Shown: piece after piece, positions 24,827 to 43,724 of the stretch
How positions within the stretch are numbered: the first letter of the stretch is position 1
How the letters are laid out: each line of letters begins with the position of its first letter
Origin: Escherichia phage LF82-4
Sequence record: PV660448
Direction: 5' to 3' (one strand)
DNA length: 64,000 nt
Notes under the pieces: model-generated
Told to the model about the DNA's origin: nothing
Seen by the model: the letters and a program-made list of their open reading frames with translations, nothing else
The model's database searches: none
Made by a program: the position numbers and the translations under genes

Positions 24827-25039
24827 TTAATTTTGGCCAGTATTTATTTTTCGCCTTTGGACGGCCTTAACATCTGTGAGGTATTTTTCCAGCTTGCGCT
24901 TGCGTGTATAATCAGCTTTAGAACCAGTTTGACGGATATCCTCGTTTAAATGAGAAATAGAATGTCCTAATTCTCTTCGGATTTCATCCAATTGGGTTAC
25001 AGTAAGATTACGAAGTTGTCTTTCGTTTAATTGCTGCAT
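24827..25039 (-). CDS. hypothetical protein (rI.1 position)
   Basis: 70 aa basic ORF between tk and rI. Confidence 0.45.
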
Positions 25040-25063
25040 ATATACCTCTTGGTTAGATATTAG

Positions 25064-25071
25064 TATTTATA
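25064..25071 (-). promoter_or_regulatory. late promoter TATAAATA upstream of rI.1/rI
   Basis: Minus strand TATAAATA 25 nt upstream of ORF 24827..25039. Confidence 0.5.
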
Positions 25072-25648
25072 ACAACCCTGTCAAATCATTCCAATGCTTC
25101 CGGCATAATGACACATATCTATCGGTATCACCAATTTCAATTTGACTGCCATCTGTAATTGGAAGTCCGTCTTCCGTGACTCTAGCTACCATTGTGGCCT
25201 TTTTACCACAATGACAGACACCTTTAAGTTCAACAAGCTTATCGGCAATAGCCATTAATGCTTGAGAACCTTCAAATAGATTACCTTTAAAATCTGTTCG
25301 TAGTCCATATGCCATTACCGGCACATTGTATACGTCAACAATACGACTAAGTTGATACACCTTTTCAGTAGTTAAGAACTGAGCTTCGTCAACAAATACG
25401 CAGTGAATATCCTTTTGTGCTGCAGCCCATTTATAGAATTCAAAGATATCCATGTCTTTTGTAATTATATTGGCATCCTGACGAATACCAATACGAGAGA
25501 CTATTTCACCTTTTGAATTACGAGTATCAATAGCCGGTTTAAGAACTAATACACCCATGCCACGTTCTTTATAGTTATGTGCGGCAGTAAGTAATGAAGC
25601 AGACTTACCAGCGTTCATAGCGGCATAGGTAAAAATTAAACTAGCCAT
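25067..25648 (-). CDS. tk: thymidine kinase
   Basis: 193 aa; P-loop AAMNAGKSASL; C-terminal zinc motif CHCGKKA...CRKH. Confidence 0.95.
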   Translation of the reverse strand: MASLIFTYAAMNAGKSASLLTAAHNYKERGMGVLVLKPAIDTRNSKGEIVSRIGIRQDANIITKDMDIFEFYKWAAAQKDIHCVFVDEAQFLTTEKVYQLSRIVDVYNVPVMAYGLRTDFKGNLFEGSQALMAIADKLVELKGVCHCGKKATMVARVTEDGLPITDGSQIEIGDTDRYVSLCRKHWNDLTGLL

Positions 25649-25838
25649 AAGAGTCCTTAGTTAAATTTTCTAAATATGTTTCTAAATCATTTTCAGCTTT
25701 ATTGATAGATTTTACTAATTCGTAGTATGTTTCGGCATCTCCATATTCAGAAGATATTTCAAAAGACAAATCCTTTTCTAAACTAATAATTTCACCAACT
25801 AAAAATAATATTTCGTTCTTTTGTTCGCGAGTAATCAT
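25641..25838 (-). CDS. hypothetical protein
   Basis: 65 aa acidic ORF. Confidence 0.4.
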   Translation of the reverse strand: MITREQKNEILFLVGEIISLEKDLSFEISSEYGDAETYYELVKSINKAENDLETYLENLTKDSYG

Positions 25839-26026
25839 AATGAATTTATATAATCAATAAGTTCTTGCTCTTTATCGTCAAAATCTTTACACAGTTCTTC
25901 GTATTCGTCAGTATTAAAAGGACCGCATTCATTACAAACTTTTTCCAATTCGCTATTTTTATCCATAACTTCGTGGATAAGAGAAAAGAGTTTGTCTTTT
26001 TGTTCTTTACTTAAACTCATAACCAT
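25835..26026 (-). CDS. hypothetical protein
   Basis: 63 aa acidic ORF. Confidence 0.4.
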   Translation of the reverse strand: MVMSLSKEQKDKLFSLIHEVMDKNSELEKVCNECGPFNTDEYEELCKDFDDKEQELIDYINSL

Positions 26027-26244
26027 GTCACCTTTAAACAGTATTCTTCTACATGCTGTTTACGACCTTTCTTATCAATAAAGGTATATTCAACGAATGT
26101 TCCAATGTAGTCTTTATCGACATCATGTGGACTATTAATTGGACATTTAGTACGACAAATGCGTTCCCATTGACGAATAATTACTGCTTTATTTTTAGGA
26201 TCAAACGGATGTGGGTAATGCACATTCATAATAATGGTTCCCAA
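26017..26244 (-). CDS. hypothetical protein
   Basis: 75 aa ORF. Confidence 0.4.
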   Translation of the reverse strand: MGTIIMNVHYPHPFDPKNKAVIIRQWERICRTKCPINSPHDVDKDYIGTFVEYTFIDKKGRKQHVEEYCLKVTWL

Positions 26245-26723
26245 TCAACAATCACAATTTCTAGTTTAGTGGAATATGTATCAAGAATTTCTTCAATGAT
26301 ATCCCAGTTTCCACCACCTATACCTGCACCAATTCTTGGCATGTAAATCACAGGCTTTGCTATCTTATTCTTTCCGAATTTATTTAATTCTATTATACAA
26401 TTCATTAAAGCAGAGTACTCAAAATTAGGTCCGGGCTCAAACTGTGTATAAAGATTAAAGCAATAAGCTTTATGGGTCTTAAAATATTTTTCATAAACCG
26501 AATAGGAACCGAGTTTAGACTCGTCTCCGAATTCGGTTTGAAGTTTATCGGCTTCTAAAATTTTTGGATAAGCCTTTGCTAATTGTCCTGCTACACCAGC
26601 GCCCATTGTATGAAAACAATTGCACCCATGAGCAATATTATTACCTTTAGAAAACAGGGCGACAATATCGCCCTTGATATAGTTTTTAATCACTTGCTGC
26701 AAGTCCTCTAGTATAAGAGTCAA
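26226..26723 (-). CDS. putative macro-domain-like protein (ADP-ribose binding/processing)
   Basis: 165 aa; glycine-rich motifs MGAGVAGQLAKAYP and PRIGAGIGGGNW resemble the two signature loops of macro domains; assignment by motif only. Confidence 0.45.
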   Translation of the reverse strand: MTLILEDLQQVIKNYIKGDIVALFSKGNNIAHGCNCFHTMGAGVAGQLAKAYPKILEADKLQTEFGDESKLGSYSVYEKYFKTHKAYCFNLYTQFEPGPNFEYSALMNCIIELNKFGKNKIAKPVIYMPRIGAGIGGGNWDIIEEILDTYSTKLEIVIVDWEPLL

Positions 26724-27033
26724 CTAGACGGTCCACCATAGAATTGCATGCTGCCTTATCTTTAGGTTCCGCCACCGAGCATTCTAATATTTGCCATTTT
26801 TTATAGTATCTTTTAATTAAGGTAGACGCCTTGAACCTACTAGACGCCCCATCTTTTTCTCCGTCTTTATATGCATATAACAATTTTTGTGAAAAATCTA
26901 CTTTACACTCTTGACTTTTACCACAATAATCAGACGCCGTTCTGTTTGTATACTCCGTTACATCAGTATATGTAGTATTAGCAAGAGCGTTAAATGAAAC
27001 CAAGCCAACTATTAAAGCCAACATTTTGGTCAT
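26686..27033 (-). CDS. hypothetical secreted protein (T4 vs position)
   Basis: 115 aa with N-terminal signal peptide MTKMLALIVGLVSFNALA; several cysteines. Confidence 0.45.
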   Translation of the reverse strand: MTKMLALIVGLVSFNALANTTYTDVTEYTNRTASDYCGKSQECKVDFSQKLLYAYKDGEKDGASSRFKASTLIKRYYKKWQILECSVAEPKDKAACNSMVDRLVDSYTRGLAASD

Positions 27034-27572
27034 TCTTTTATTTCCAGTAGTTTATTTGATTTAAGGTAATTAGCCTTTTCTAGGACTTCAGAAGCATATT
27101 TACTTCCAGCACTTGTCTTCCATCCAGCATTATATGAGGATATGGCTTTCCTTATATCCCCGTTATGTATATTTAACCAATAAGAAAATTCGATATAAGC
27201 CCATCTTGCTGAATTAGACCGCTTAGATAGCATTTTCTTAATTTGGGCATCAGTCATATTATAACCAAGCTGGTTAATTCTTGCCCTCATTGTTGGTAGA
27301 TAATTTTGGAACATTCCATACGCATGGTGACCTTTCTTATCTTTAAGATTAATACCGGCAGATGATTCCTGCCATAGTATTGCGGCCATTATGTATCCAA
27401 GTCCTTTCTTATGCATATTTTCATGCGTTTTAAATTTTCCATCCTTAGAAAACTGTTCCCCAAACTGATAAGCATAATTCAAGTTATCGAGTTGGACATT
27501 ACTAAAAGTATGCTCGGAGCTATGTGCTGATAACGAAAGAGCAAATAGACCAGCGAGTAGTGCTTTTCTCAT
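27030..27572 (-). CDS. putative periplasmic lytic transglycosylase
   Basis: Signal peptide MRKALLAGLFALSLSAHS; catalytic-type ES motif (ILWQESSAG) and AYNAG-like motif typical of SLT domains. Confidence 0.65.
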   Translation of the reverse strand: MRKALLAGLFALSLSAHSSEHTFSNVQLDNLNYAYQFGEQFSKDGKFKTHENMHKKGLGYIMAAILWQESSAGINLKDKKGHHAYGMFQNYLPTMRARINQLGYNMTDAQIKKMLSKRSNSARWAYIEFSYWLNIHNGDIRKAISSYNAGWKTSAGSKYASEVLEKANYLKSNKLLEIKE

Positions 27573-27580
27573 GTTTACCT

Positions 27581-28039
27581 CTAGATTTTAATCACTGCTT
27601 TAGAAGCTTTTCCTGGTAGTCGTTTACTGTTAATAATAGCCATTCTGCATTGAAGAGTCTTCATTTTGAATGCTGGATTTTCGCGACAAACTGTAAGTCC
27701 TAACCAAAGATTTCCATCAGTTATTTCTAAACGGCCTGGGCGATATTCGACACCTTCGACAAAATCTTCATCAACATCTGGACGTGCCGGCATTGATAAA
27801 AATTCTGCAACTTCTTTAGCATGATTTTTTACTTTATGAAATAATTCAAAAACGTAATTCTCATCTATTTCTCTCTGGATGGCACGATCTAAGAGATGTT
27901 GAGAATACTTGATATGAAAGCCTGGTAGTCCAAGAGACTTTGCAGCATCTTTTATACCGGCATTTATTTTGCGGAACTCCGTTTCAAAGATTCGACGGAG
28001 TTTATTACGGCGGATAAAAACTTCCGAATTGATAGTCAT
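27581..28039 (-). CDS. regB: endoribonuclease RegB
   Basis: Start MTINSEVFIRRNKLRR...; C-terminus LQCRMAIINSKRLPGKASKAVIK matches T4 RegB from memory. Confidence 0.9.
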   Translation of the reverse strand: MTINSEVFIRRNKLRRIFETEFRKINAGIKDAAKSLGLPGFHIKYSQHLLDRAIQREIDENYVFELFHKVKNHAKEVAEFLSMPARPDVDEDFVEGVEYRPGRLEITDGNLWLGLTVCRENPAFKMKTLQCRMAIINSKRLPGKASKAVIKI

Positions 28040-28095
28040 TTTGATTTCTCCTCTAGTTGACAAGTCTATAGTAACACAACTAGAGGAGAAGTAAA

Positions 28096-28395
28096 CTACT
28101 CTTTGAAAGGAATTAACTTTTTAACTGCTTTAGATACTTCGTCACGAACCTGATGGAAGTTCTTGAGCTGTTCAAGGCGTTGTTCGTAATACGCAATCTC
28201 ATCTTCTTCAAGACAATCGTCAGCGTCTTCTTTCAGATATGCCTTGTACTCATTAAAGAGGGCCCATAGGCGGTTCTCAAAGTCATCAAGGCTTTGAATT
28301 TTCTTGTGCTTCGGAACAAGGCCAAAAGGATTGCTTTCAGTTATGCGTCTAGATGCTTCATAATGAGTTCCAAAGCCTGATAGGATTTGAGCCAT
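28096..28395 (-). CDS. hypothetical protein
   Basis: 99 aa ORF. Confidence 0.45.
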
Positions 28396-32108: not shown

Positions 32109-32567
32109 TTATAGGATGGTAGTGAGCACCTTGTATAACGATTTGCCCATTACATATTCCCATTGAGAAGGTTTAATTAAAGCGAATGCATCAAATTCAG
32201 GAATCTGTCGTCCGTCTGGGAATGTATGATAGGAATTACAAACACTGTTTCTGAATTGCTCATGCTCTACAGGGATGGTATATAGGAACAGATGAATATT
32301 CTTATTGTCTGAGTAATGATGTTCACCTAGGTCTTTCAGGAAGGCAGGGTCATATTGTGTAAACCCAGTTTCTTCTTCGCATTCACGAATAGCGGCTTCA
32401 ATAGGAGATTCGCCAGGTTCGACACGGCCTTTAGGAATATCCCACCGATGAGCTAATGCACCTTTAGGACGAGAACCAGTTACACGACCCATGAATAATT
32501 CTTTATTTTCGGTAAGGAAAATAATACCGGCAGATAGTTCTTTCACTTTATTTTTCTTACTCATCAT
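32109..32567 (-). CDS. nudE: Nudix hydrolase NudE
   Basis: Nudix box GRVEPGESPIEAAIRECEEETGF; directly after lysozyme gene as T4 e.1. Confidence 0.85.
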   Translation of the reverse strand: MMSKKNKVKELSAGIIFLTENKELFMGRVTGSRPKGALAHRWDIPKGRVEPGESPIEAAIRECEEETGFTQYDPAFLKDLGEHHYSDNKNIHLFLYTIPVEHEQFRNSVCNSYHTFPDGRQIPEFDAFALIKPSQWEYVMGKSLYKVLTTIL

Positions 32568-32793
32568 CTCGGTCCCATGATTTGGCCATTAATTCAGACA
32601 TAAATTCTTCAATGCGCGTTTCTTTAGATGGACTTTCACTATTAGAGACCGCAAGTTTGTAATCTGCAATAGGACGGAACAAATCAAGGTCCATATTAAG
32701 ATCGTCTTTGATTTGTTCTTCAGATACGTCTTTATCATACGTATACAAATAACTATCACCCGATTCTGATTTAACGTAAATTGCTATGCTCAT
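32557..32793 (-). CDS. hypothetical protein
   Basis: 78 aa acidic ORF. Confidence 0.4.
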   Translation of the reverse strand: MSIAIYVKSESGDSYLYTYDKDVSEEQIKDDLNMDLDLFRPIADYKLAVSNSESPSKETRIEEFMSELMAKSWDRDDE

Positions 32794-33188
32794 CTCAAAT
32801 TCCTACATTCGGTAATAAAACGTTCAACTTCATTATTCTTGGCCTTTATCTTGTCTTTACGTTCCTGTAAACTACTTTTAACAAGATTAATAATGATGCC
32901 TATAGTACCTCCACCAATAATACCACCAATAATACTTACGATAGTAGATGCTAATAATATAGCGATAATATCTGGTATGGCAAAGGCACTTACTTTAGTA
33001 CTAAAAAACCATACCGACGGTACAAATATAATCCATCCTGTTATCCATTGGCACTTATTGAAAAACTTTTCAAGCTCAGCTTGAGTTGTTCTTATTACTT
33101 CATCGATAGGTTGATATCCATTAATGTATCTGTTCACGATAATACCTGCTGGCTGGTCGATTTTAAATTCTTGACAAATACGTTTCAC
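32790..33188 (-). CDS. hypothetical membrane protein
   Basis: 132 aa; central glycine/isoleucine-rich hydrophobic stretch. Confidence 0.45.
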   Translation of the reverse strand: MKRICQEFKIDQPAGIIVNRYINGYQPIDEVIRTTQAELEKFFNKCQWITGWIIFVPSVWFFSTKVSAFAIPDIIAILLASTIVSIIGGIIGGGTIGIIINLVKSSLQERKDKIKAKNNEVERFITECRNLR

Positions 33189-33269
33189 TAAGTAGGATGG
33201 ACATCCTGTCCAATCTACTGAATAGTACGAAATACCTTCATTACTTAGACCAATATGTTTTGTTAATCA

Positions 33270-33956
33270 TTACCAGCCTTCCATAGGGAATTCCAGATAA
33301 ACTTGAGCATTGACACGAATTTCATTGGTAATCTTTTTAACTCGGTCTGTATTACGAGATACACGTCCGAACCAACGCCATCCATTACTAATTGCACGAG
33401 AACCAGTGTGCCATGTTTGCCAATCAAACTGAAGAAGAGTACGGTCCGGAGCTTCCCATTTCTCTAGTTCACCTTTTTCAATTTTTTCGAGGACTTCTTT
33501 GTGCCATTGGCGATAGATAAGTTCGCCATCAGGAATCTGACTGAACTCTGCAGTTCCTGTTGCAAAATGAGTAGGACACACGTCAGCGTTAACAAGACCA
33601 AGAATATGTTCAGAATGGTAACGAGGGTTATCATAGTCAGGTTGTCCTGCAGTAATAAAGTGTTGGCCGACTGGAATATCAGGGCGAGGAACATCGTCAT
33701 GGTGATATCCAGGAATAGCAGGATACCAACCAGGCATCAGCATATGAACCCGAGAATCAAATACAACATGTTGATTAGTCCAATCAATTGGGAGATTGGC
33801 AATAAAGCTACGAGTAATAGGACCGCCGTTATCCCAAGCAAAACTCAAATCACAGTTAAAGAACATTGGTTCATTTTTGATTTGGTCATTTTGTACGTTA
33901 TGAGCAAAACCACCTACTGCGCGAGCTTGACTATTAAACACTTTAGAACTATTCAT
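33270..33956 (-). CDS. hypothetical protein (His/Asp-rich, possible metal-dependent enzyme)
   Basis: 228 aa; HHDD and later His residues plus R-x-S near C-terminus could form a 2-His-1-carboxylate site; speculative. Confidence 0.45.
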   Translation of the reverse strand: MNSSKVFNSQARAVGGFAHNVQNDQIKNEPMFFNCDLSFAWDNGGPITRSFIANLPIDWTNQHVVFDSRVHMLMPGWYPAIPGYHHDDVPRPDIPVGQHFITAGQPDYDNPRYHSEHILGLVNADVCPTHFATGTAEFSQIPDGELIYRQWHKEVLEKIEKGELEKWEAPDRTLLQFDWQTWHTGSRAISNGWRWFGRVSRNTDRVKKITNEIRVNAQVYLEFPMEGW

Positions 33957-33957
33957 A

Positions 33958-34263
33958 TTATTTTCCTCGACATTCTTTAATGAAATTTTCTAGATTGGTA
34001 GATTCAATAGCTTTTTTACGAGCTTCTGCATGTTCTTCTTCAGACAATTTACATTTATAATTAACCCAGACGTTATGGTCAAAACTAGTCGTGGCATATA
34101 ATAACAATGCTCCAACGAATAGCAAAAACGGCGATAAGAATACAAAACCAGGAACACCATCCATATCGTAAGCCTTTTGTAATACTGCAACAGAAAGGGC
34201 TGCGTAAAAAGGTGATGCAAATATTGTTAAAAGACCAATTCGGTTGGTTTCGCCTAATTTCAT
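33958..34263 (-). CDS. hypothetical membrane protein
   Basis: 101 aa, two hydrophobic helices; own early promoter upstream. Confidence 0.45.
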   Translation of the reverse strand: MKLGETNRIGLLTIFASPFYAALSVAVLQKAYDMDGVPGFVFLSPFLLFVGALLLYATTSFDHNVWVNYKCKLSEEEHAEARKKAIESTNLENFIKECRGK

Positions 34264-34292
34264 AATATTCTCCTCATGTTTTTAATAGGACT

Positions 34293-34322
34293 ACTATAAC
34301 ATAGTCCTATAATTGTGTAAAC
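34293..34322 (-). promoter_or_regulatory. early sigma70-type promoter with flanking inverted repeat
   Basis: Minus strand GTTTAC -18- TATAGT; arms ATAGGACT/AGTCCTAT around the -10. Confidence 0.5.
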
Positions 34323-34334
34323 AGTTTTGTGAAG

Positions 34335-35291
34335 TTATTTGAAAGGTTTTACCATATGGAAATTTTGTTTGAAACGTTTGACGTAATCATTTTTGCCGAG
34401 CTTATGATACATAGCCACTACTTCATAATAGTTCTCGTATGCGTACTCACGGAACCATCCGGAGGTGATGCTTGTACAGACTTTTTCCAATGCCATCATA
34501 AAACTGGCTTCAGGGTTAATTTTAAAGTTATTAGGAATCTGAGAACGTTCTAATGCTAATACACATGATTCTTCGTATACACCGGCCAATTTGACCATTT
34601 CTGGTAATGATTCGAACTTCTCGCGTGAGGTCATGACTTCAGAACCATCTTTCATATAAAATGTATACGCTGGACGGTCTGTTAGTGCAATGGCTTCATG
34701 AATAGTATCATGGTCATATGTATAGATGTCATCTTTAAAGAACGCACTTTTAGAAGTGTCAAGAACCGGGTGAGCATAGTTCAAAGTTTCTTTCTGGCGT
34801 TTCAACATAATTTCAGTAAGTTCATCGTTCAGTGTAACACCTTTACCACGAAGATACTGAATATGGTTCATAGTCTTTAAAAAGAATGGATTATTTTTCT
34901 TGAAACGATGAGACATCTTAATTGCAAGACATATCTCAGGAGTTGCCCAGTAAAACCCAGTCAAACGGTCTTTAGTCAAATTTTTCTTGGCGTATTTTAA
35001 AAGGTCATAAGAAGATGTGAAATCTTCAGGAGTGAGTTCACCGACTAATTCACGGACATTAGTGATTGCCGGAACAATATATGCTTCAAAATGAGTTTCA
35101 CGTCCATTATGGAAGCATTTGAAAACTTGGACATCAGGGTTATCTTGGTGAACATATACACCCATCATTTGATTTTTGAATACATTCCAAGAACCTTGGT
35201 CCGCAATAAAGTCCCAATCACTATTTTTGATAGCGCTAGAATCAATAAGGCCATGGTAGTGAAGTGCACGAGAACCAATAACTAACATCAT
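34335..35291 (-). CDS. hypothetical protein
   Basis: 318 aa; N-terminal IGSRALHYHG...SDWDFIAD weakly resembles a nucleotidyltransferase GS...DxD motif. Confidence 0.5.
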   Translation of the reverse strand: MMLVIGSRALHYHGLIDSSAIKNSDWDFIADQGSWNVFKNQMMGVYVHQDNPDVQVFKCFHNGRETHFEAYIVPAITNVRELVGELTPEDFTSSYDLLKYAKKNLTKDRLTGFYWATPEICLAIKMSHRFKKNNPFFLKTMNHIQYLRGKGVTLNDELTEIMLKRQKETLNYAHPVLDTSKSAFFKDDIYTYDHDTIHEAIALTDRPAYTFYMKDGSEVMTSREKFESLPEMVKLAGVYEESCVLALERSQIPNNFKINPEASFMMALEKVCTSITSGWFREYAYENYYEVVAMYHKLGKNDYVKRFKQNFHMVKPFK

Positions 35292-35316
35292 AATATTTTC
35301 CTCGAATTTAGATTAC

Positions 35317-35556
35317 TTAAATTTCGCGACATGCGATATTATATTCATCCCAGAGGTCGTCATGTGAAGCCTCTACCAATGGAACGATTGTACCATTTAT
35401 ATCTTCATTATAAGGGCAAATTGTACAGTGCGCATCTTCGAATCGGATGCCTTTGTGTTCAGATTTTTTATAACGCATATCGAATATCTTTGCAAACTTT
35501 TCACGAGTAATAGTTTTAGCAACTACTTCGGTTCCTATACTTTCGTAATAAACCAT
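35317..35556 (-). CDS. hypothetical cysteine-containing protein
   Basis: ORF track 35317..35568; ATG 35556 with GGAG RBS. Confidence 0.4.
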   Translation of the reverse strand: MVYYESIGTEVVAKTITREKFAKIFDMRYKKSEHKGIRFEDAHCTICPYNEDINGTIVPLVEASHDDLWDEYNIACREI

Positions 35557-35618
35557 TGTTGTCTCCATTTAATTTGATAGGACTACTATAACATAGCCCT
35601 ATCTTGTTGTAAACTGTT

Positions 35619-35816
35619 TTAGCAAGAATAACTAGATGATACCCAGCCTTGAACAGTGATACTATTGTGGGATAATGAGATCGCGTCCTGGAGATTCAGA
35701 CCTGCATTATCTTCAATCCACAATGTAACTTCTTCACGCTCTTCGGTTGCAATCTGGAACAGGTTTTCTAGAGCAGCTACGGCCGTACGTACAGCACAAT
35801 CTAATTCACGAGACAT
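35619..35816 (-). CDS. small protein, paralog family member 3 (C-terminal WVSSSYSC)
   Basis: 65 aa; shares C-terminal motif with two upstream ORFs. Confidence 0.45.
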   Translation of the reverse strand: MSRELDCAVRTAVAALENLFQIATEEREEVTLWIEDNAGLNLQDAISLSHNSITVQGWVSSSYSC

Positions 35817-35825
35817 ATGATTTCC

Positions 35826-36098
35826 TTAACAAGTGTGAGAAGATGCAACCCAACCACCAGTTTCGAGGCTCAGGTTGTAGTCGTATTGGTAAACGTCAGC
35901 CCATTCGGCATAACCGTTTTTTGTACAACGTTCAAGATCGGCTTTAAGATGTCCGGGTGAATGATAGGTTCCACCCATACCATAAGCTGGGTACAAGTTG
36001 AATGTTGTGTTTTGTTTATCAGCAATTTCTTTGGCAGCCTCAATAGCTGCATAGATTTTTGCTACAGCTTCAGCCAGTTCGGTTTGTTCTTTAGACAT
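35826..36098 (-). CDS. small protein, paralog family member 2 (C-terminal GGWVASSHTC)
   Basis: 90 aa; starts MSKEQ; shares architecture with 36108..36413. Confidence 0.5.
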   Translation of the reverse strand: MSKEQTELAEAVAKIYAAIEAAKEIADKQNTTFNLYPAYGMGGTYHSPGHLKADLERCTKNGYAEWADVYQYDYNLSLETGGWVASSHTC

Positions 36099-36107
36099 AA
36101 TGATTCC

Positions 36108-36413
36108 TTAGCACAACGCAGAAGATGAAACCCAAGCACCTTCAGTAATAACGTATCCATTACCTTCACGCTTAACATCGCCGCCATTATTTTCAATTTC
36201 ATCTTTCATCCACTGGGATACGATTTCACCCTTAGGATAATAAGTACGACCGCTACCATAATCACCTACAGAAAATGATACGGCATATTGGTCTGCGATC
36301 TTTGTTGCTTCTTCTTCGATACGTTCAGCTTGATTCAGAAGTTTATAAATTGCATCTGAAGCGGATTTGGCATCATTAAACTCTGGTACTTTAATTTCAA
36401 TAATCTTACTCAT
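36108..36413 (-). CDS. small protein, paralog family member 1 (C-terminal GAWVSSSALC)
   Basis: 101 aa; starts MSKII; early-type promoter just upstream. Confidence 0.5.
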   Translation of the reverse strand: MSKIIEIKVPEFNDAKSASDAIYKLLNQAERIEEEATKIADQYAVSFSVGDYGSGRTYYPKGEIVSQWMKDEIENNGGDVKREGNGYVITEGAWVSSSALC

Positions 36414-36511
36414 TTTCTACATTCCTTAATAAAGTTTTCGATTGTTTCATTTTCACGTTTAGCTAGGAGTTCATTATAACTAATCATTTGAGAAGCGTAA
36501 ACAGCATAAAT

Positions 36512-36934
36512 TCAGTTAAGGCTTTTGCATCTTATTTCCTTAACGAATTCCATAGCTTCTTCATATTCATACTTTTTAACAGCTTCATCATACTGAGCTT
36601 GGGCTTTTGCGCACTGAACTTTCCATTCTCTTAATCGGGCTCTGTGATGACGGCCTTGGTACCAATATCCCATCCAGTTAATAGGCATTAATAAAAATGG
36701 TACAATAAGTGGTGCGACGAACATTAATGAAAATGCTGCATCAGACGATATAACTTCACTAGAATCTAAAACGGCTCCTATAATCATAAAGATTAAAAAT
36801 GCTAAAGCTAAAATAGGGCCAAATAGTACTTCATTTGGGATTAATTTACGCTTGTATTCATACGCCCAGGGCTTACTTGGCATGTACAGGGTTGGCTTTG
36901 ACATATTCTCTACATTCCATAATAAATTGCTCAA
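36512..36934 (-). CDS. hypothetical membrane protein
   Basis: 140 aa, two or three transmembrane helices followed by charged tail. Confidence 0.45.
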   Translation of the reverse strand: MSNLLWNVENMSKPTLYMPSKPWAYEYKRKLIPNEVLFGPILALAFLIFMIIGAVLDSSEVISSDAAFSLMFVAPLIVPFLLMPINWMGYWYQGRHHRARLREWKVQCAKAQAQYDEAVKKYEYEEAMEFVKEIRCKSLN

Positions 36935-37475
36935 GGATTAAATTGTTAGTGAAATTAGGACTAACAACCATAGTTTCATAAAGCGCATCAATAGCACTTA
37001 AAGCATCAACTCTCTTAAGCAAAGGCTTGCCTTCATACATAGTTTCAGAATCGACGATTAACGTAAAGTAGTATTTTTTATTATCGACTAGAACTTCTGT
37101 ATCGATATAAAACATATTAGACCTCAGAAGCTTATCTCTAAAACCATAATAATCTTCAGAGCGTTCGCTGATATATTCCCATTCAGTGTTTAAACAACAA
37201 ACAGACCACGTAGGAGCAACGAAATCAGTGAATCTAATATCATAGTCTGCAACTAGTTTAGCAATAGCTCCGATATCATGAATCATAATACCTGGGGCTA
37301 ATAAAGATTTTCTGCTATGGCTAGCCGTTTTCTCAGTGGTTTCATAAGAAGACGACCAATACCATTTACGTCCGGTTGCAACATATCGTAATGAATCAAC
37401 TAAAGACGTAGGTGGATTTACCTTATCTCGGAACTCTTCGAACATTGAGTCAATATCATTATTTTGGTTTCGCAT
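36873..37475 (-). CDS. hypothetical protein
   Basis: ORF track 36873..37496; ATG 37475 with AAAGGAG RBS. Confidence 0.5.
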   Translation of the reverse strand: MRNQNNDIDSMFEEFRDKVNPPTSLVDSLRYVATGRKWYWSSSYETTEKTASHSRKSLLAPGIMIHDIGAIAKLVADYDIRFTDFVAPTWSVCCLNTEWEYISERSEDYYGFRDKLLRSNMFYIDTEVLVDNKKYYFTLIVDSETMYEGKPLLKRVDALSAIDALYETMVVSPNFTNNLILEQFIMECREYVKANPVHAK

Positions 37476-37524
37476 GTTAACTCCTTTATTATCCAAAAGG
37501 AGGACCGGAGTCCTCCGTATTATT

Positions 37525-38118
37525 TTATTTCAAAGAGTTAATATATTCTTGTACATCAGCAGAAGTGGTTTCGACACCGGCTGGAGTGCCATTGAACGTT
37601 TCAACACGAGTCAGAGTGTCTTCGATATCAACCTTAGTCAGTGCAGCGATTTCAATCACATCATCAGCCGTAGAGATACCAAGGGCATTGGCTGCTCGAG
37701 TTTCACGAATGTATTCGAGTTTGATTGCCAGGTTCTGACGAGCATCATCAAGTTCAACCACCTTACGAGCAATTTCAATTCGCATAGCGGCATACCCATC
37801 AGCTTTTGTATTAAGTTGTTCGGCAGTTCGACGATACAGAAGACCAAGCTTAGCATGCATGGTAACATCTTGTCCTTCAGCCAGGAGCTTACGAATTTCA
37901 CGTTCCTTAGAAGCGGCTTGCTTGTTCTTTTCATTAACAAGTTCGCGAATACGTTTTTCTTCATTAATAGATTTAACAGAAGCCGTTTTTAGTTCTTTGA
38001 TTTGGGTAATCAACTTATCTGCAGCTGCGTTATACTGTTCTTCGACAGTCAGATTTTTAGCCATAGCAGTACCCAGTTTAGTGCGGATGAATTCAACAAG
38101 TTTCTTCAGTGTGTTCAT
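37525..38118 (-). CDS. hypothetical coiled-coil protein (PspA-like composition)
   Basis: ORF track 37525..38133; ATG 38118; long heptad-repeat helices; driven by the duplicated 45-nt promoter cassette. Confidence 0.5.
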
Positions 38119-38142
38119 ATTATTACCTTTCAATTGGTGGTT

Positions 38143-38187
38143 TATTATCCAACGAGAGCATTATACTCTGCTCTCAAGAGTTTGTAA
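38143..38187. repeat. 45-nt exact repeat, copy 2 (promoter cassette)
   Basis: Identical to 8200..8244. Confidence 0.9.
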
Positions 38188-38191
38188 ATTA
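38162..38191 (-). promoter_or_regulatory. early-type promoter inside duplicated 45-nt cassette (copy 2)
   Basis: Minus strand ATTTACA -17- TATAAT; identical core to copy at 8200..8244. Confidence 0.5.
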
Positions 38192-38416
38192 TTTTTTAAT
38201 CAAATTGACATAAAACTTGGCATCTTCGGGGTGCATGCCTTCGCAGTATTCTTCAACCATGAACTTCTTAACAGCTTCATAAGGACCACTCAGATTAAGC
38301 TCAGTTGTCCAGAACTTGGAATCTTGTACTGAATCGATACGAACTTCAGGGTGACGGTTGCGAATAACTTCTTCTGTGTATTCATAATCAACGACATCAA
38401 TACTAACTTTAGCCAT
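38189..38416 (-). CDS. hypothetical protein
   Basis: 75 aa acidic ORF. Confidence 0.4.
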   Translation of the reverse strand: MAKVSIDVVDYEYTEEVIRNRHPEVRIDSVQDSKFWTTELNLSGPYEAVKKFMVEEYCEGMHPEDAKFYVNLIKK

Positions 38417-38645
38417 TTTGTTTTCCTCTTGATTTGATGTGATTACTATAACATAAACTTACTTAGATGTAAACTATTTCAACATCACCTTTAGCTGCTT
38501 TATAACCTTCGGCCCAAGATACAACAGAGTTTTTATCTGAGGATTCAAATTCAGGCATTGGACTTTCACCAATATTCACACAGTATGTTTCTTCATTTTC
38601 ATCGAACCAAATAATTAAAGTAGTCATTTTGTTTACTCCACTGTA

Positions 38646-38666
38646 GTTGATAAGTCTATAGTATCA
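38646..38666. repeat. 21-nt repeat, copy 1
   Basis: GTTGATAAGTCTATAGTATCA identical at 38646..38666 and 39018..39038, both in promoter regions. Confidence 0.85.
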
Positions 38667-38695
38667 CCATCCTTGGTGCTTGTACATCATTATTT

Positions 38696-39001
38696 TTAAT
38701 TTTTCCAACTTAACAACTTGTAGTGTCCTTCATTCGTACGAGGTTTATCCCAATAGATATTAATAAACGATGTCTCACCAATAGAAGTCGGCGGTTTTTT
38801 CTCTACAGTAAGACCTTCGCTTTCTAACCACTCAATGACTTTTGTAGATAAAGCTAAAGAAACATGTAATGGACAACGACAGTATTTTTCACCTTTAGCT
38901 GAAGACTCGTACATCATTTCTAAAATACGTTTTTGCACTTTTTTAAAAATAGTTTCAGCAGATTCTTCAGATTTTTTATTCAGTTCAGTGTAAAGACTCA
39001 T
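38696..39001 (-). CDS. hypothetical protein
   Basis: 101 aa; CRCP motif; GGAG RBS. Confidence 0.45.
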   Translation of the reverse strand: MSLYTELNKKSEESAETIFKKVQKRILEMMYESSAKGEKYCRCPLHVSLALSTKVIEWLESEGLTVEKKPPTSIGETSFINIYWDKPRTNEGHYKLLSWKN

Positions 39002-39017
39002 AATATTCTCCTCTGCG

Positions 39018-39038
39018 GTTGATAAGTCTATAGTATCA
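39018..39038. repeat. 21-nt repeat, copy 2
   Basis: Identical to 38646..38666. Confidence 0.85.
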
Positions 39039-39087
39039 TGTCCTTAGAAGAAGTAAACAACTTTTTAAACTTTTTCTGCCCTAGATA

Positions 39088-39117
39088 CCAAAAAGCCCCA
39101 ACCTTTCGGAAGGGGCT
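39088..39117 (-). terminator. intrinsic terminator (repeated 24-nt hairpin, copy 3)
   Basis: Identical 24-nt hairpin at 3-prime end of tRNA-like RNA region, U tract follows. Confidence 0.6.
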
Positions 39118-39119
39118 AA

Positions 39120-39430
39120 GCCTTGCGGCAACCTTGTCGGGGTTTCCACCTACTAGGTAAGTGTTTGTACGAAACGCCGGGATTCGAACCCGGTTATTAA
39201 GCAGTTGACGCTACTCAATATTTTTAAAAGGCCATATCTCGACCATATCCGAACGTTCCGTCAAAAACGCTACTCGGCTTACGGCAAAGATATTTCCTCG
39301 AATCGATAATTCTGTGCGCCGTTTCTGCTGTGATGTAAGGGGATATTAACGAATCATAAAGATTTATTAAGACCAGTCCTTACTCAGGGAACATCAGTCC
39401 GACGACTTACCGGTAGCGACCCGGCTTCTT
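39120..39430 (-). ncRNA. non-coding, tRNA-like RNA region (possible remnant tRNA or T4 species-1/2-type stable RNA)
   Basis: About 310 nt with no ORF; minus strand contains canonical T-arm CCGGGTTCGAATCCCGG followed by CGTTTCG that pairs with upstream CGGAACG, but the intervening 58 nt do not fold into a standard D/anticodon arm; followed by a hairpin terminator. Confidence 0.3.
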
Positions 39431-39773
39431 ATTTTGGCATATCATCAATTTGCTCTCGACGCCGACGCCATAGATTAATCGCTTCATAAACACATTCAGC
39501 ATTTGGTATATGGCGACAATAGTATAGTGATTCGCGTTTCTGGAACCGATGTTGCAATGGGATTTCGTTTAAAAGGTCTTTACGGTCAAAGTATTCAAAA
39601 CTAGTTAACCCGGAACGGTTTTTAAGAAACTTCCAATGGCCAAATTCATTTTGGAAATAAACGTAATCAGCGTGTTGATATAATGAATTAATCAACCGGT
39701 CGGAAATAACTGTATCCTGTTCGTTAAAATAAAACGTTAAATCATGAACTACCAGATAAATATTGCCTTTCAT
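39429..39773 (-). CDS. hypothetical protein
   Basis: 114 aa ORF between segB-like gene and RNA region. Confidence 0.45.
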   Translation of the reverse strand: MKGNIYLVVHDLTFYFNEQDTVISDRLINSLYQHADYVYFQNEFGHWKFLKNRSGLTSFEYFDRKDLLNEIPLQHRFQKRESLYYCRHIPNAECVYEAINLWRRRREQIDDMPK

Positions 39774-39780
39774 ATTTTCC

Positions 39781-40449
39781 TCACTTAAATTTTAGTTTAT
39801 AGCCTTTAATCCAACCTTCCGGAATAGGATCGGTTTTCTTAATTTTCTTAGATTTCTTTTCTTCTAATGAATGAATCCACATAGTACCAAACTGGGAATT
39901 TTTCTCGCCTTGTTGGTGTTTGTTCCTGGCGTGGGTATCTTTCATTTTAGCAATAGTTTCGGAAGTATGATTTTTATTTAAAAACGACTTAGTGCTAGAG
40001 AATTTTTCTCTGTATTCAGGTAAAGTCCACAGATGCTTTAATTTCTCTGAACCCATTTTACGATATTTTTCTTGAAGCACTTCATCAGAATCAAATCTCT
40101 CTTTAAAAGCTTTGGCTCCTTTAATAGAGGCTTCTTTCTTTTTATAATTAAATTCGTAAGTATTTAAATGGTCCCAACCACCTTCGCCACCAAGTTTTAA
40201 ATTATATACGTCAGAACGATTCAAAAATTCTTCGTTTACGATATTTTTCTCGGCTTCAAACATCTGCTCTTTAGTGTCAAAGAATTCTAAAATTTCTTTA
40301 TTAAAATTTTCTATACCATACTTGTCTTGGGCTCTTTTTAATAATTTACCAGAACCCATATATCCATCATCTAAATTTTCGGTAGAATGAGCGCCTATAT
40401 AGATTTTATTATTAATTTTATTTGTTATTTTATAAGTGTAATGGAACAT
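39781..40449 (-). CDS. segB: GIY-YIG homing endonuclease (SegB-like)
   Basis: N-terminus HYTYKITNKINNKIYIGAHS is a canonical GIY-YIG motif; 222 aa; sits between tRNA genes as T4 segB does. Confidence 0.75.
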   Translation of the reverse strand: MFHYTYKITNKINNKIYIGAHSTENLDDGYMGSGKLLKRAQDKYGIENFNKEILEFFDTKEQMFEAEKNIVNEEFLNRSDVYNLKLGGEGGWDHLNTYEFNYKKKEASIKGAKAFKERFDSDEVLQEKYRKMGSEKLKHLWTLPEYREKFSSTKSFLNKNHTSETIAKMKDTHARNKHQQGEKNSQFGTMWIHSLEEKKSKKIKKTDPIPEGWIKGYKLKFK

Positions 40450-40490
40450 AAATATCTCCTATTTCTAAGAGTATTTATGTTCCCAAAATA

Positions 40491-40562
40491 TGGCCCTGGC
40501 TGGTTTCGATCCAGCTACCTATCAGTTATGAGCTGACAGCTCTCCCATTGAGCTACAGGGCC
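40491..40562 (-). tRNA. tRNA with CAU anticodon (elongator Met or lysidine-modified Ile)
   Basis: Minus strand 72 nt folds as a cloverleaf: acceptor GGCCCTG/CAGGGCC, D stem GCTC/GAGC, anticodon stem GTCAG/CTGAT with loop CTCATAA, T stem GCTGG/CCAGC with loop ATCGAAA, discriminator A; no encoded CCA. Confidence 0.85.
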
Positions 40563-40656
40563 TTAATAACTTTCTATTATGAAAGGCACTTTAGAGCACC
40601 TTTGGTAATAGAGGGTAGATTAATAATAACACATAATTCTTAAAGCAAATTACGTT

Positions 40657-40947
40657 TTACCATACCATATTAATGTAATTATACTCAATACATTCAAGAT
40701 TTAAAGGATTCTTGAAAATATCATATTCAAGAGGACCTTTTTCTGTTTCAATAAAGAAATCAAAGTTCACACTATTAAATTTGCGGTCTTCCCAAAGTAA
40801 TTTAACCTGTGAAGATGAACGGTCGACGTAAACCTTTTCAACTTCAAAGTGGGTCAAAATACCATAGTAATCGACTAGTGCTTTAGCTGCACGTTGATCG
40901 CTTTCATATCCATTCTCAACGGATTTTACCTTAGCATAAAGAATCAT
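40657..40947 (-). CDS. hypothetical protein
   Basis: 96 aa ORF. Confidence 0.45.
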   Translation of the reverse strand: MILYAKVKSVENGYESDQRAAKALVDYYGILTHFEVEKVYVDRSSSQVKLLWEDRKFNSVNFDFFIETEKGPLEYDIFKNPLNLECIEYNYINMVW

Positions 40948-41324
40948 GAATGTTCCACCACTTCAAAGGTGTGAGCATCAACAATATGATACCAGTCAAA
41001 ATTTTCTTCTGCGTTTTTATAAATTTCGCGAAGAGCCTCAACAGTTTTTCCTGTAGCAACAAGGTCGTCAATACCACCAAGAGGATAACAGTCATAACCA
41101 GCAAACAGAAGGAAATTAATAGTTTCTGTAGGTTCTGGATGCAAAACACCATTATCATCTACCACTTCAAAGAAAGTGTAAGAAGGAGTACAAGTTTTAA
41201 TCCAAGCCCATGCTTGAGCTGCTGAATCAAATGGTCTGCGTATCAAACGACAATCAGGGTCTTTAGAAGGATTTGCTTCAAAATCCGCATATACGTGATA
41301 TTTCATTTTACTCACCTTTTGCAA
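40944..41324 (-). CDS. hypothetical protein
   Basis: 126 aa acidic ORF. Confidence 0.45.
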   Translation of the reverse strand: MQKVSKMKYHVYADFEANPSKDPDCRLIRRPFDSAAQAWAWIKTCTPSYTFFEVVDDNGVLHPEPTETINFLLFAGYDCYPLGGIDDLVATGKTVEALREIYKNAEENFDWYHIVDAHTFEVVEHS

Positions 41325-41493
41325 TTTTATCCATAACGATAGCGATTAAGCCGATTAGAAATGCTACTACCAATGAGATAGAATTTTCTGTTGTTGTCAG
41401 TAGTCCACAAATGAATCCTACAAACATCGAAAAACTAAAAGCCATTGAAGCAATTACTACAGCAACATTACGAATCAGTTCAGCGCGTTTCAT
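41308..41493 (-). CDS. hypothetical small membrane protein
   Basis: 61 aa with two hydrophobic helices. Confidence 0.4.
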   Translation of the reverse strand: MKRAELIRNVAVVIASMAFSFSMFVGFICGLLTTTENSISLVVAFLIGLIAIVMDKIAKGE

Positions 41494-41562
41494 TTTATTC
41501 TCCTCAGTAGTTGATAGGGTAATAGTATCACTACCCTATCTAAAAGTAAACGGTTTTATAAA

Positions 41563-41871
41563 CTATTTTATTCCGCGTGATGCAATCGTATTCTGCCGTT
41601 TAACACCAGTTTGTTTAAAGTCATGACTGTCGATTTGATCGGTGCGAGCAACTCCGAATGATGATTTAATCTTAGCTTTAGATCCTTTAGTTATAGAAAT
41701 AAACATCTCGGAAGACCCTTTCTTAAAGTCTGATGCAGATACTTCAACACCGTTCTTAGCAAGTGACCTCAGAATTGCATCCGCGTACTCATCATCAAGA
41801 CTCGCTTGAGTATTAATAACAAATGTCTTTGGTGCAGCCGCTTCATTGATAAATTCTTTATAGGTTTTCAT
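41563..41871 (-). CDS. internal protein-like (capsid-targeting-sequence bearing)
   Basis: N-terminus MKTYKEFINEA; own early promoter-stem-loop upstream. Confidence 0.6.
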   Translation of the reverse strand: MKTYKEFINEAAAPKTFVINTQASLDDEYADAILRSLAKNGVEVSASDFKKGSSEMFISITKGSKAKIKSSFGVARTDQIDSHDFKQTGVKRQNTIASRGIK

Positions 41872-41901
41872 TTTATTTTCCTAATTAATTTTGATAGGAC
41901 T

Positions 41902-41931
41902 ACTATAACATAGTCCTATTAGCATGTAAAC
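41902..41931 (-). promoter_or_regulatory. early sigma70-type promoter with flanking inverted repeat
   Basis: Minus strand GTTTAC -18- TATAGT with TG extended -10; arms ATAGGACT/AGTCCTAT. Confidence 0.5.
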
Positions 41932-41934
41932 TAC

Positions 41935-42222
41935 TTACAGAAGGGTTTTTGCAATAATTTTAAGCTGAGCTACAGAAATATGCTTAGCTTTAAACAGTGC
42001 AGTCTCTTCAGCCGGAGAGATAACAATAGTAGCGCCATCTTTCTTAGCAGACCATCCATCCCCTAAGTAAACAGTACCTTTTACTTCTTCGCCATCAACC
42101 AGACTAATCATTGGTTTACCCTCACGTCCTTTATTTGCTTTAATAACTTCGGAAGTAAGGGTCGCTTCGGTCAGAGTAGAAACGTTAGCATCAGGTGATA
42201 TAAATTCTTTATAGGTTTTCAT
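41935..42222 (-). CDS. internal protein-like (capsid-targeting-sequence bearing, IPI position)
   Basis: N-terminus MKTYKEFISPD...LTEA; 95 aa; located just upstream of 57B/57A as ipI is in T4. Confidence 0.6.
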   Translation of the reverse strand: MKTYKEFISPDANVSTLTEATLTSEVIKANKGREGKPMISLVDGEEVKGTVYLGDGWSAKKDGATIVISPAEETALFKAKHISVAQLKIIAKTLL

Positions 42223-42299
42223 TTTATTTCCTTGAGGTTGTTTATTTTATAGGATGATAGTAACACACCATCATCCTTATGTAAACTGTTTTGTGAAAA

Positions 42300-42985
<686 letters not shown>

Positions 42986-42989
42986 TTTA

Positions 42990-43724
42990 TTACCTTAAGA
43001 TTTTTTCAATTTTAGAATAAAGCTCTTCTAACGAGCCGTCGTTTGTAATAACTAAGTCGCCTTCTTCAATAGGCAACCCAGCTTCTGTAATATGTTTATC
43101 AGTGGATTCCGTACCAGAGCGAACCACATGAATAACTGTAGCACCCATCGCTCTAGCGGTTTCCATTTCATGGACTTGTCGTGTATCGGTCACAACGTAG
43201 TAATCGAAATCACTTCCAATATAATCCATATAGTTTAATGCAAAAAGCTTAACCCAATACATACGGTCAAATAAATTAACGACAACATCCGTACCGAGGG
43301 CTTGCATAAGACGGCGGATCGACCATGTGTCGTTGATATTATTTATAGCTTCACGCAGGGCTTCATATGGTTTAATATCTAGATATGAATATCCACCTTC
43401 TAACGATGATAATACTTTAACATTATTAATTGGTAAATATTGACTTTGCAAATAAATTAGCGCTTCTTCCAATAATTCAATAACATCCAACTTATTGAGA
43501 TTTAATGGTGTTTCACGGTCGTATCCAATGCCTTCAAAGTATTCGTATTTCAACTCTGTGAATACATCAGGATTTTCAGCATGTCTACGTCCCCAGGCTA
43601 TTGCTAGAGCGTCTTTAATTGGATATGCTAATTGGTATTTTACGGATTTAAAGTTTGAATTGATGTAATCAGCAGTAGTGTCTTTACCACTACGTTTGAT
43701 GCCACTTAAAAAGATTAGCTCCAT
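42990..43724 (-). CDS. 1: deoxynucleoside monophosphate kinase gp1
   Basis: MELIFLSGIKRSGKDTTADY P-loop; 244 aa; ...MGATVIHVVR...GLPIEEGDLVITNDGSLEEL matches T4 gp1. Confidence 0.9.
   Translation of the reverse strand: MELIFLSGIKRSGKDTTADYINSNFKSVKYQLAYPIKDALAIAWGRRHAENPDVFTELKYEYFEGIGYDRETPLNLNKLDVIELLEEALIYLQSQYLPINNVKVLSSLEGGYSYLDIKPYEALREAINNINDTWSIRRLMQALGTDVVVNLFDRMYWVKLFALNYMDYIGSDFDYYVVTDTRQVHEMETARAMGATVIHVVRSGTESTDKHITEAGLPIEEGDLVITNDGSLEELYSKIEKILR

Follow-up and report, generated by a model that had tools for sequence, protein, structure and literature searches.

The Mosigvirus ortholog of T4 tk.4 (adfM): a predicted stand-alone macrodomain with a glutamine-type active site and a likely role against DarTG2

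Results

Arrangement of the tk.4 locus

The DNA analysed here (the window) is a stretch of 64,000 nucleotides from Escherichia phage LF82-4 (sequence record PV660448), a Mosigvirus, that is, an RB69-like T-even phage of the Tevenvirinae. On its minus strand lies a macrodomain gene that was identified by sequence as the Mosigvirus (RB69-like) ortholog of T4 tk.4, now designated adfM (anti-DarT factor Macrodomain). The gene order in the window is tk (thymidine kinase), three small open reading frames (ORFs), the macrodomain ORF, vs, vs.1 and regB, which is the order tk, tk.1, tk.2, tk.3, tk.4, vs, vs.1, regB of T4. An earlier note on this DNA had placed the ORF next to a thymidine kinase cluster, and the kinase gene was indeed found on the same strand, beyond three small ORFs downstream of the macrodomain ORF (Table 1). 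Over positions 25000-28100 the window matches Escherichia phage LF82-9, also a Mosigvirus, at 100% identity, and many further RB69-like phages at 97-99%.

Table 1 Features of the tk.4 locus and of other genes discussed in the text. Positions are those of the window; residue numbers are those of the 155-residue protein.
Feature	Position	Strand	Remarks
tk.4/adfM ortholog coding sequence, predicted stand-alone macrodomain	26226..26693	-	155 amino acids, GTG start, TGA stop
TTG extension of 10 codons	26694..26723	-	inside the vs 3' end; probably untranslated as part of the Tk.4 ortholog
H22-G23-C24-N25-C26 motif	26616..26630	-	nearly invariant in 101 homologs
Loop 1, M30-G31-A32-G33-V34-A35-G36, predicted first Gly-rich ADP-ribose-binding loop	26586..26606	-	aligns with TARG1 MGAGIA and DarG MGKGIA
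N80-L-Y82-T-Q84 motif	26442..26456	-	N80, Y82 and Q84 invariant in 101 homologs
Loop 2, P119-R-I-G-A-G-I-G-G-G-N-W130, predicted second Gly-rich (phosphate-binding) loop	26304..26339	-	G124 corresponds to SCO6735 G128
GAGGA Shine-Dalgarno-like element	26704..26708	-	10 nt 5' of the GTG; also ahead of the T4 tk.4 ATG
vs (valyl-tRNA synthetase modifier), upstream neighbour	26686..27033	-	vs stop overlaps tk.4 start (GTGATTAA)
tk.3 homolog, downstream neighbour	26017..26229	-	tk.3 ATG overlaps tk.4 stop (ATGA)
Terminator-like hairpin, AGGGCGATATTGTCGCCCT then GTTTTCT	26656..26674	-	12 nt beyond the vs stop, within tk.4 codons 7-13
Thymidine kinase (tk)	25067..25648	-	
vs.1 homolog	27030..27572	-	SLT lytic-transglycosylase match below threshold
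Intact ORF of 179 amino acids	29549..30088	-	no Pfam hit
NUDIX hydrolase	32109..32567	-	Pfam PF00293, 60 bits; at the T4 nudE (e.1) position
Acb1 (T4 57B) homolog, anti-CBASS phosphodiesterase	42300..42755	-	Pfam PF23474, 196.8 bits
Deoxynucleoside monophosphate kinase	42990..43724		about 44334 expected from LF82-9

Orthology with T4 Tk.4 and the start of the gene

The T4 Tk.4 protein and the window protein aligned over 155 of 155 residues with 85% identity and no gaps. Synonymous sites were nearly saturated between the two genes (synonymous divergence, dS, 1.3; nonsynonymous divergence, dN, 0.09), and a dN/dS of 0.07 at a dS of this size indicated that the gene is genuine and strongly constrained by purifying selection. 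Both hallmarks of the T4 Tk.4/AdfM orthologous group, full-length high identity and a position between tk.3 and vs, were present, and the two proteins share all invariant residues of the family. The T4 protein differs by 23 substitutions, for example K129 in loop 2, which is G129 in the window protein. In addition, T4 tk.4 begins with ATG whereas the window copy begins with GTG, and the T4 copy is from a Tequatrovirus rather than a Mosigvirus. The anti-DarTG2 phenotype is known for the T4 copy only.

Read from its first possible start, TTG at 26723, the minus-strand ORF encodes 165 amino acids and ends at a TGA stop at 26226. The earlier note had described the protein at this length; the ORF is present as described, but its first 10 codons probably lie outside the gene. 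Translation most likely begins at the GTG at 26693, which gives a 155-residue product of 17.4 kDa. This start was preferred because the GenBank records of near-identical phages annotate the coding sequence (CDS) at 26226..26693, the limits also annotated in the identical stretch of LF82-9; because the GTG lines up with the T4 tk.4 ATG and the same GAGGA precedes both; because the 10 extra codons fall within the 3' end of vs; and because MIxxxIKGD opens all 100 homologs of the family. Two plus-strand ORFs that overlap tk.4 (26053..26346 and 26583..26711) were without support and were set aside.

Macrodomain fold and class

By sequence and by structural model, the protein is assigned as a stand-alone macrodomain of the ALC1-like class, which includes TARG1, DarG, SCO6735 and Poa1p. 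The Pfam Macro model (PF01661) matched with 28.1 bits (gathering score 22; E = 2.2e-6) over 116 of 118 profile positions (2-117), and a phmmer search of the PDB returned BT1257 at E = 1.9e-11. When a family profile built from 100 homologs was searched against the PDB, BT1257, TARG1, SCO6735, Poa1p and DarG were recovered at E = 4e-17 to 1e-11, while coronavirus Mac1 appeared only at 6.5e-5. The protein also matched PHROG 335 ('phosphatase') at E = 4e-66, and the sole matches in NCBIfam and PADLOC were to the macrodomain part of DarG.

An AlphaFold2 model generated from 101 sequences had a predicted local distance difference test score (pLDDT) of 96 and a predicted template modelling score (pTM) of 0.91. 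In this model a three-layer alpha/beta macro fold is predicted, and the two glycine-rich segments, MGAGVAGQLAKAYP and PRIGAGIGGGNW, lie in loops after strands 20-25 and 115-118, as expected of the two ligand loops. With the model as query, the top Foldseek ranks were held by TARG1, Poa1p, DarG, BT1257 and SCO6735. Human TARG1/OARD1 (PDB 4j5r) was the top hit (family-profile E = 6e-17), and its loops MGAGIA and PRIGCGL are nearly identical to loops 1 and 2 of the window protein. The nearest neighbours by sequence and by structure were all ALC1-like/TARG1-like, with a clear gap to the MacroD, viral Mac1 and PARG classes. The agreement of the Pfam, phmmer, family-profile and model results indicated that the resemblance to macrodomains is not due to chance. 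The earlier note had described two glycine-rich loops in a macro-domain-like arrangement and had named a profile search and a fold prediction as checks; both loops were found, and both checks came out in favour of a macrodomain.

Predicted active site of the Gln type

To compare catalytic residues, each reference protein was aligned individually to the single Tk.4 family profile. SCO6735 numbering was counted on the 5e3b chain, where Q85 and V25 agree with the published numbering (PMC9411070), and the DarG sequences were verified against 5m3i and 5m31. Two other alignments were discarded: in a MAFFT alignment of only five distant sequences the central region was shifted, so that K75 wrongly fell in register across proteins, and a pairwise phmmer alignment with SCO6735 put NLYTQ and NMIGQ out of register and was kept only for the sequence and numbering of SCO6735.

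The profile alignments matched N25 to the conserved macrodomain Asn (N27 in SCO6735, N23 in PhiKZ gp104). At the catalytic position the window protein has Q84, in the motif NLYTQ. Gln is found at this position in SCO6735 (Q85) and in BT1257, both with the motif NMIGQ, whereas TARG1 has K84 (YLITK), the DarG proteins of M. tuberculosis and T. aquaticus have K80 (NFPTK), and Poa1p has Ser (LFTS). The profile alignment of PhiKZ gp104 was out of register in this segment, but its FPTK motif makes it Lys type. The Gln, locking Asn and loop-2 Gly of SCO6735 (Q85, N27 and G128) are represented in the window protein by Q84, N25 and G124, and SCO6735 H24 and G126 correspond to H22 and G122. The second member of the TARG1 K84/D125 dyad falls on a Gly (G126).

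Across the 101 homologs, down to 35% identity, Q84, N25 and G124 were invariant or nearly so. Within loop 1, G33 and A35 were invariant and M30 and G31 nearly so; the invariant residues of loop 2 were P119, I121, G122 and G124. NLY(T/G)Q was present in named phages of Vequintavirus, Felixounavirus, Pakpunavirus, Moazamivirus and Phapecoctavirus, and in a 253-kb Vibrio phage; in these six further groups, too, the counterparts of Q84, N25 and G124 were invariant or nearly so. These alignments indicated that the active site is of the Gln type known from Streptomyces SCO6735 and not of the Lys type of DarG, TARG1 and PhiKZ AdfM. The catalytic core common to the Tk.4 lineage, SCO6735 and BT1257 further argues that Tk.4 is not a truncated DarG. 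This Gln-type reading of the Tk.4 family is an addition to the literature that we examined.

Comparison with the closest known systems

SCO6735 of Streptomyces coelicolor (PDB 5e3b) is, like the window protein, a stand-alone macrodomain of about 150 amino acids without a DarT partner. The two differ in that identity is about 23%, that SCO6735 is strongly basic (isoelectric point, pI, 9.9 versus 6.3), and that SCO6735 is a bacterial housekeeping or stress protein, whereas the window protein would serve in phage counter-defence. Bacteroides BT1257 (2fg1/2afc), which has the same Gln-type motif as SCO6735, is of unknown function.

The DarG macrodomains compared were those of M. tuberculosis (5m3i), T. 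aquaticus (5m31/5m3e) and T. africanus (7omu). DarG carries its catalytic Lys in FPTK, has a C-terminal DarT-binding domain and is encoded beside DarT, whereas the window gene lies beside vs and tk.3. The DarG equivalog model NCBIfam NF048014 gave 30.7 bits against a cut-off of 250, matching model positions 4-146 of 338.

PhiKZ gp104 (AdfM; Cell Rep 2026, PMC13309987) is likewise a stand-alone phage macrodomain that counters DarTG2. It is DarG-like, was the weakest match of the Tk.4 profile (36 bits), is imported into the phage nucleus (PMC13309987), and probably represents an acquisition independent of Tk.4. The name AdfM was by coincidence given by two groups to these different macrodomains, the Gln-type T4 Tk.4 and the Lys-type PhiKZ gp104.

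Evidence for a probable role against DarTG2

The gene is already known, as an annotated macrodomain whose T4 ortholog has been assigned an anti-DarTG2 function. In a HIDEN-SEQ screen of a T4 transposon library on a DarTG2-expressing host, tk.4 was the lone significant hit; a clean tk.4 knock-out rendered T4 sensitive to DarTG2, after which the gene was renamed adfM, while tk.4 was dispensable on plain E. coli K-12 and scored with DarTG2 only (bioRxiv 10.1101/2025.11.20.689424). The earlier note had proposed that the protein could remove ADP-ribose marks placed by host defences, and that its deletion might sensitise the phage to DarTG. For the 85%-identical T4 ortholog the first has genetic support and the deletion has already been made, with a positive outcome. 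Previously, DarTG2 resistance had persisted in T4 lacking adfA and adfN, and a further factor had been predicted (PMC11825919).

Biochemical evidence comes from related macrodomains. SCO6735 neutralises DarT and frees DNA of thymidine-linked ADP-ribose; its activity is lost in the Q85A mutant, almost lost with N27S and lowered with G128E, and a water-mediated mechanism has been proposed (PMC9411070). PhiKZ gp104 strips DarT2-made ADP-ribose from a TNTC DNA oligonucleotide in vitro, for which the conserved Asn is needed (PMC13309987). Human TARG1 likewise reverses thymidine-linked DNA ADP-ribosylation (PMC8501950, PMC13036486).

Taken with the orthology, these data suggest that the window protein probably serves in counter-defence, as a hydrolase of the thymidine-linked ADP-ribose that DarT2 attaches to single-stranded phage DNA. 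In an infected DarTG2 host, the DarT2 toxin would ADP-ribosylate thymidines in single-stranded phage DNA and so block replication. The phage macrodomain would bind the ADP-ribose between its two Gly-rich loops, where N25 would hold Q84 in place and Q84 would orient the distal ribose for cleavage mediated by water. Hydrolysis of the thymine-ribose bond would then yield free ADP-ribose and DNA that can again be replicated. We infer from orthology that protection is enzymatic, that the substrate is thymidine-ADP-ribose on DNA, and that the window copy behaves as the T4 copy does.

Several points weigh against this assignment. For T4 the evidence consists of genetics reported in a preprint, in which enzymatic removal of ADP-ribose from DNA 'seems likely' (bioRxiv 10.1101/2025.11.20.689424), and the DarTG2 role is drawn from the T4 ortholog, not from the window phage or RB69. 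The window protein lacks the catalytic Lys found in DarG and TARG1, and it does not conserve the two Lys residues with which SCO6735 positions DNA: K34 corresponds to A32 and K89 roughly to G88. Poa1p, a phosphatase of the small molecule ADP-ribose-1''-phosphate, is as close as DarG by sequence and by fold, and a comparative-genomics survey favours low-molecular-weight ADP-ribose derivatives for most phage macro domains (PMC9503650). Finally, SCO6735 also inhibits DarT without catalysis (PMC9411070), so that protection may rest on more than enzymatic action. Net charge and pI were dropped as indicators of DNA binding, as the active PhiKZ gp104 has a pI of 5.05, below the 6.29 of the window protein.

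The resemblance to Poa1p raises the alternative that the protein acts mainly on small ADP-ribose derivatives, as an ADP-ribose-1''-phosphate phosphatase, an O-acetyl-ADP-ribose deacetylase or a degrader of immune signals derived from nicotinamide adenine dinucleotide (NAD), with the DarTG2 phenotype as a side activity. The H-x-C-N-C motif is common to yeast Poa1p (PDB 6lfq-6lfu) and the window protein, and Poa1p H23 and S30, which were mutated in 6lfs and 6lft and whose roles we take from the PDB titles, align with H22 and T29. The T4 record reads 'contains A1pp phosphatase motif', which together with the PHROG label and the published preference for soluble ADP-ribose derivatives (PMC9503650) would be in keeping with such a role. 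Yet the 'phosphatase' label is an inherited annotation, DarTG2 sensitivity is the sole phenotype recorded for the ortholog, and the residues invariant in the family are those that SCO6735 needs to hydrolyse thymidine-ADP-ribose on DNA. Also against a small-molecule role, the pathway that produces ADP-ribose-1''-phosphate (Tpt1/KptA tRNA splicing) is not known to belong to T-even infection. On balance this alternative is unlikely.

A second alternative is protection without catalysis, in which the macrodomain would serve as a binding module that inhibits DarT2 directly or masks ADP-ribosylated sites. Catalytically dead SCO6735 (Q85A), DarG (K80A) and TARG1 (K84A) inhibit DarT in vitro, SCO6735 most strongly (PMC9411070), and the absence of the DarG/TARG1 Lys would fit a binding role. 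However, at 155 residues the window protein has no counterpart of the C-terminal DarT-binding domain in the 338-position DarG model, N25, Q84 and G124 do not vary even among distant phages, which fits a conserved active site better than a toxin-specific interface, and mutation of the Asn inactivates PhiKZ AdfM (PMC13309987). We therefore regard purely non-catalytic protection as quite improbable.

T-even phages themselves encode three Arg-specific ADP-ribosyltransferases (PMC8120803), and a phage-encoded eraser would be their natural partner. The macrodomain could then erase or tune the ADP-ribosylation or RNAylation that Alt, ModA and ModB place on host proteins. Against this, the T4 transferases target arginine (PMC8120803), whereas TARG1 and SCO6735 act on Glu/Asp-linked protein ADP-ribose (PMC9411070) and TARG1-like enzymes act on thymine- or uracil-linked ADP-ribose, with hydrolysis of the arginine-linked form not reported (PMC9411070, PMC13036486). 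Furthermore, none of alt, modA and modB is a neighbour of tk.4, and on plain E. coli K-12 tk.4 is inessential, scoring solely under DarTG2. Of the explanations considered, this one appears the most far-fetched.

Distribution of the family and breadth of substrate

Relatives of the protein were found by tblastn in 2,793 of 50,697 phage records (5.5%), mostly from large virulent phages of Escherichia, Klebsiella, Salmonella, Pseudomonas, Vibrio and Acinetobacter. Many of these records already carry a label such as 'macro domain protein', 'Poa1p-like', 'O-acetyl-ADP-ribose deacetylase' or 'phosphatase', and in a published survey macro domains were present in 41% of myoviruses (PMC9503650).

This host range, from Escherichia to Vibrio, Pseudomonas and Acinetobacter, would suit an enzyme that, in addition to its DarT2 role, erases base-linked ADP-ribose more broadly, including uracil-linked marks on RNA and those of other nucleic-acid ADP-ribosylating defences. 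Reversal of uracil ADP-ribosylation on single-stranded RNA has been described for TARG1 and DarG, and above all for SCO6735, which is of the Gln type (PMC13036486). However, the literature that we examined describes no bacterial defence that ADP-ribosylates uracil, and since T-even phages carry the Tk.4 family, the macrodomain evidently fails to neutralise one RNA mark. Such added breadth is very unlikely for the window protein, and hydrolysis of DarT2-made thymidine-ADP-ribose remains the preferred reading.

Neighbouring genes and expression

The start and stop overlaps on both sides of tk.4 are typical of a translationally coupled block of phage genes, and the overlap of the tk.4 stop with the tk.3 ATG suggests translational coupling within a single transcription unit. 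A scan for sigma-70-like promoters gave 11 sites compared to 13.4 +/- 4.0 in shuffled sequence; as this is no excess, the scan was uninformative on expression.

The terminator-like hairpin within the tk.4 coding sequence has 8 pairs (minimum free energy -13.8 kcal/mol, z = -2.1). Its 19-nt stem-loop is unchanged in T4, although the two genes share only 81% DNA identity, and Yersinia phage fPS-65 has a 'terminator' annotated at the same position. The hairpin could act as an attenuator of read-through from vs into tk.4. Further upstream, the vs.1 homolog has a signal-peptide-like N-terminus, and its match to the SLT lytic-transglycosylase model reached 18.8 bits against a cut-off of 21.3.

Other genes and differences in the window

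At the Acb1 homolog, a phosphodiesterase directed against the cyclic oligonucleotide-based antiphage signalling system (CBASS), the window carries a second known counter-defence gene; the label 'RNA ligase' given to it in LF82-9 looks like a misannotation. T4 NudE hydrolyses ADP-ribose among other substrates, so the NUDIX hydrolase at the nudE position could, by analogy, clear the free ADP-ribose that the macrodomain would release.

The ORF of 179 amino acids is intact in the window and annotated as two overlapping CDS in LF82-9, whose coordinates are one base off past this ORF, indicating a 1-nt insertion or deletion between the two. Somewhere within about 32600..42990 the window is about 1.34 kb shorter than LF82-9, to which it is closely related but not identical as a genome, and the deoxynucleoside monophosphate kinase gene is displaced from its expected position (Table 1).

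Significance of Gln-type macrodomains in phages

Defence through ADP-ribosylation of phage DNA by DarT toxins is widespread among bacteria. Host range is easier to predict when the phages that carry an eraser are known, which is relevant to therapeutic T-even-like phages such as the window phage, an E. coli LF82-type phage. The Gln-type site of the Tk.4 family has so far been studied only in Streptomyces SCO6735.

We tentatively propose, as a doubtful but possible extension, that the Gln-type Tk.4 macrodomains form a distinct phage-wide lineage (5.5% of records, at least seven genera) that was recruited from stand-alone SCO6735/BT1257-like bacterial enzymes and not from DarG. Its members would generally erase pyrimidine-linked ADP-ribose on DNA (thymine) and RNA (uracil), and might also block the transferase directly. 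If this is true, the lineage would counter several defences that ADP-ribosylate nucleic acids, DarTG2 being simply the first to be found.
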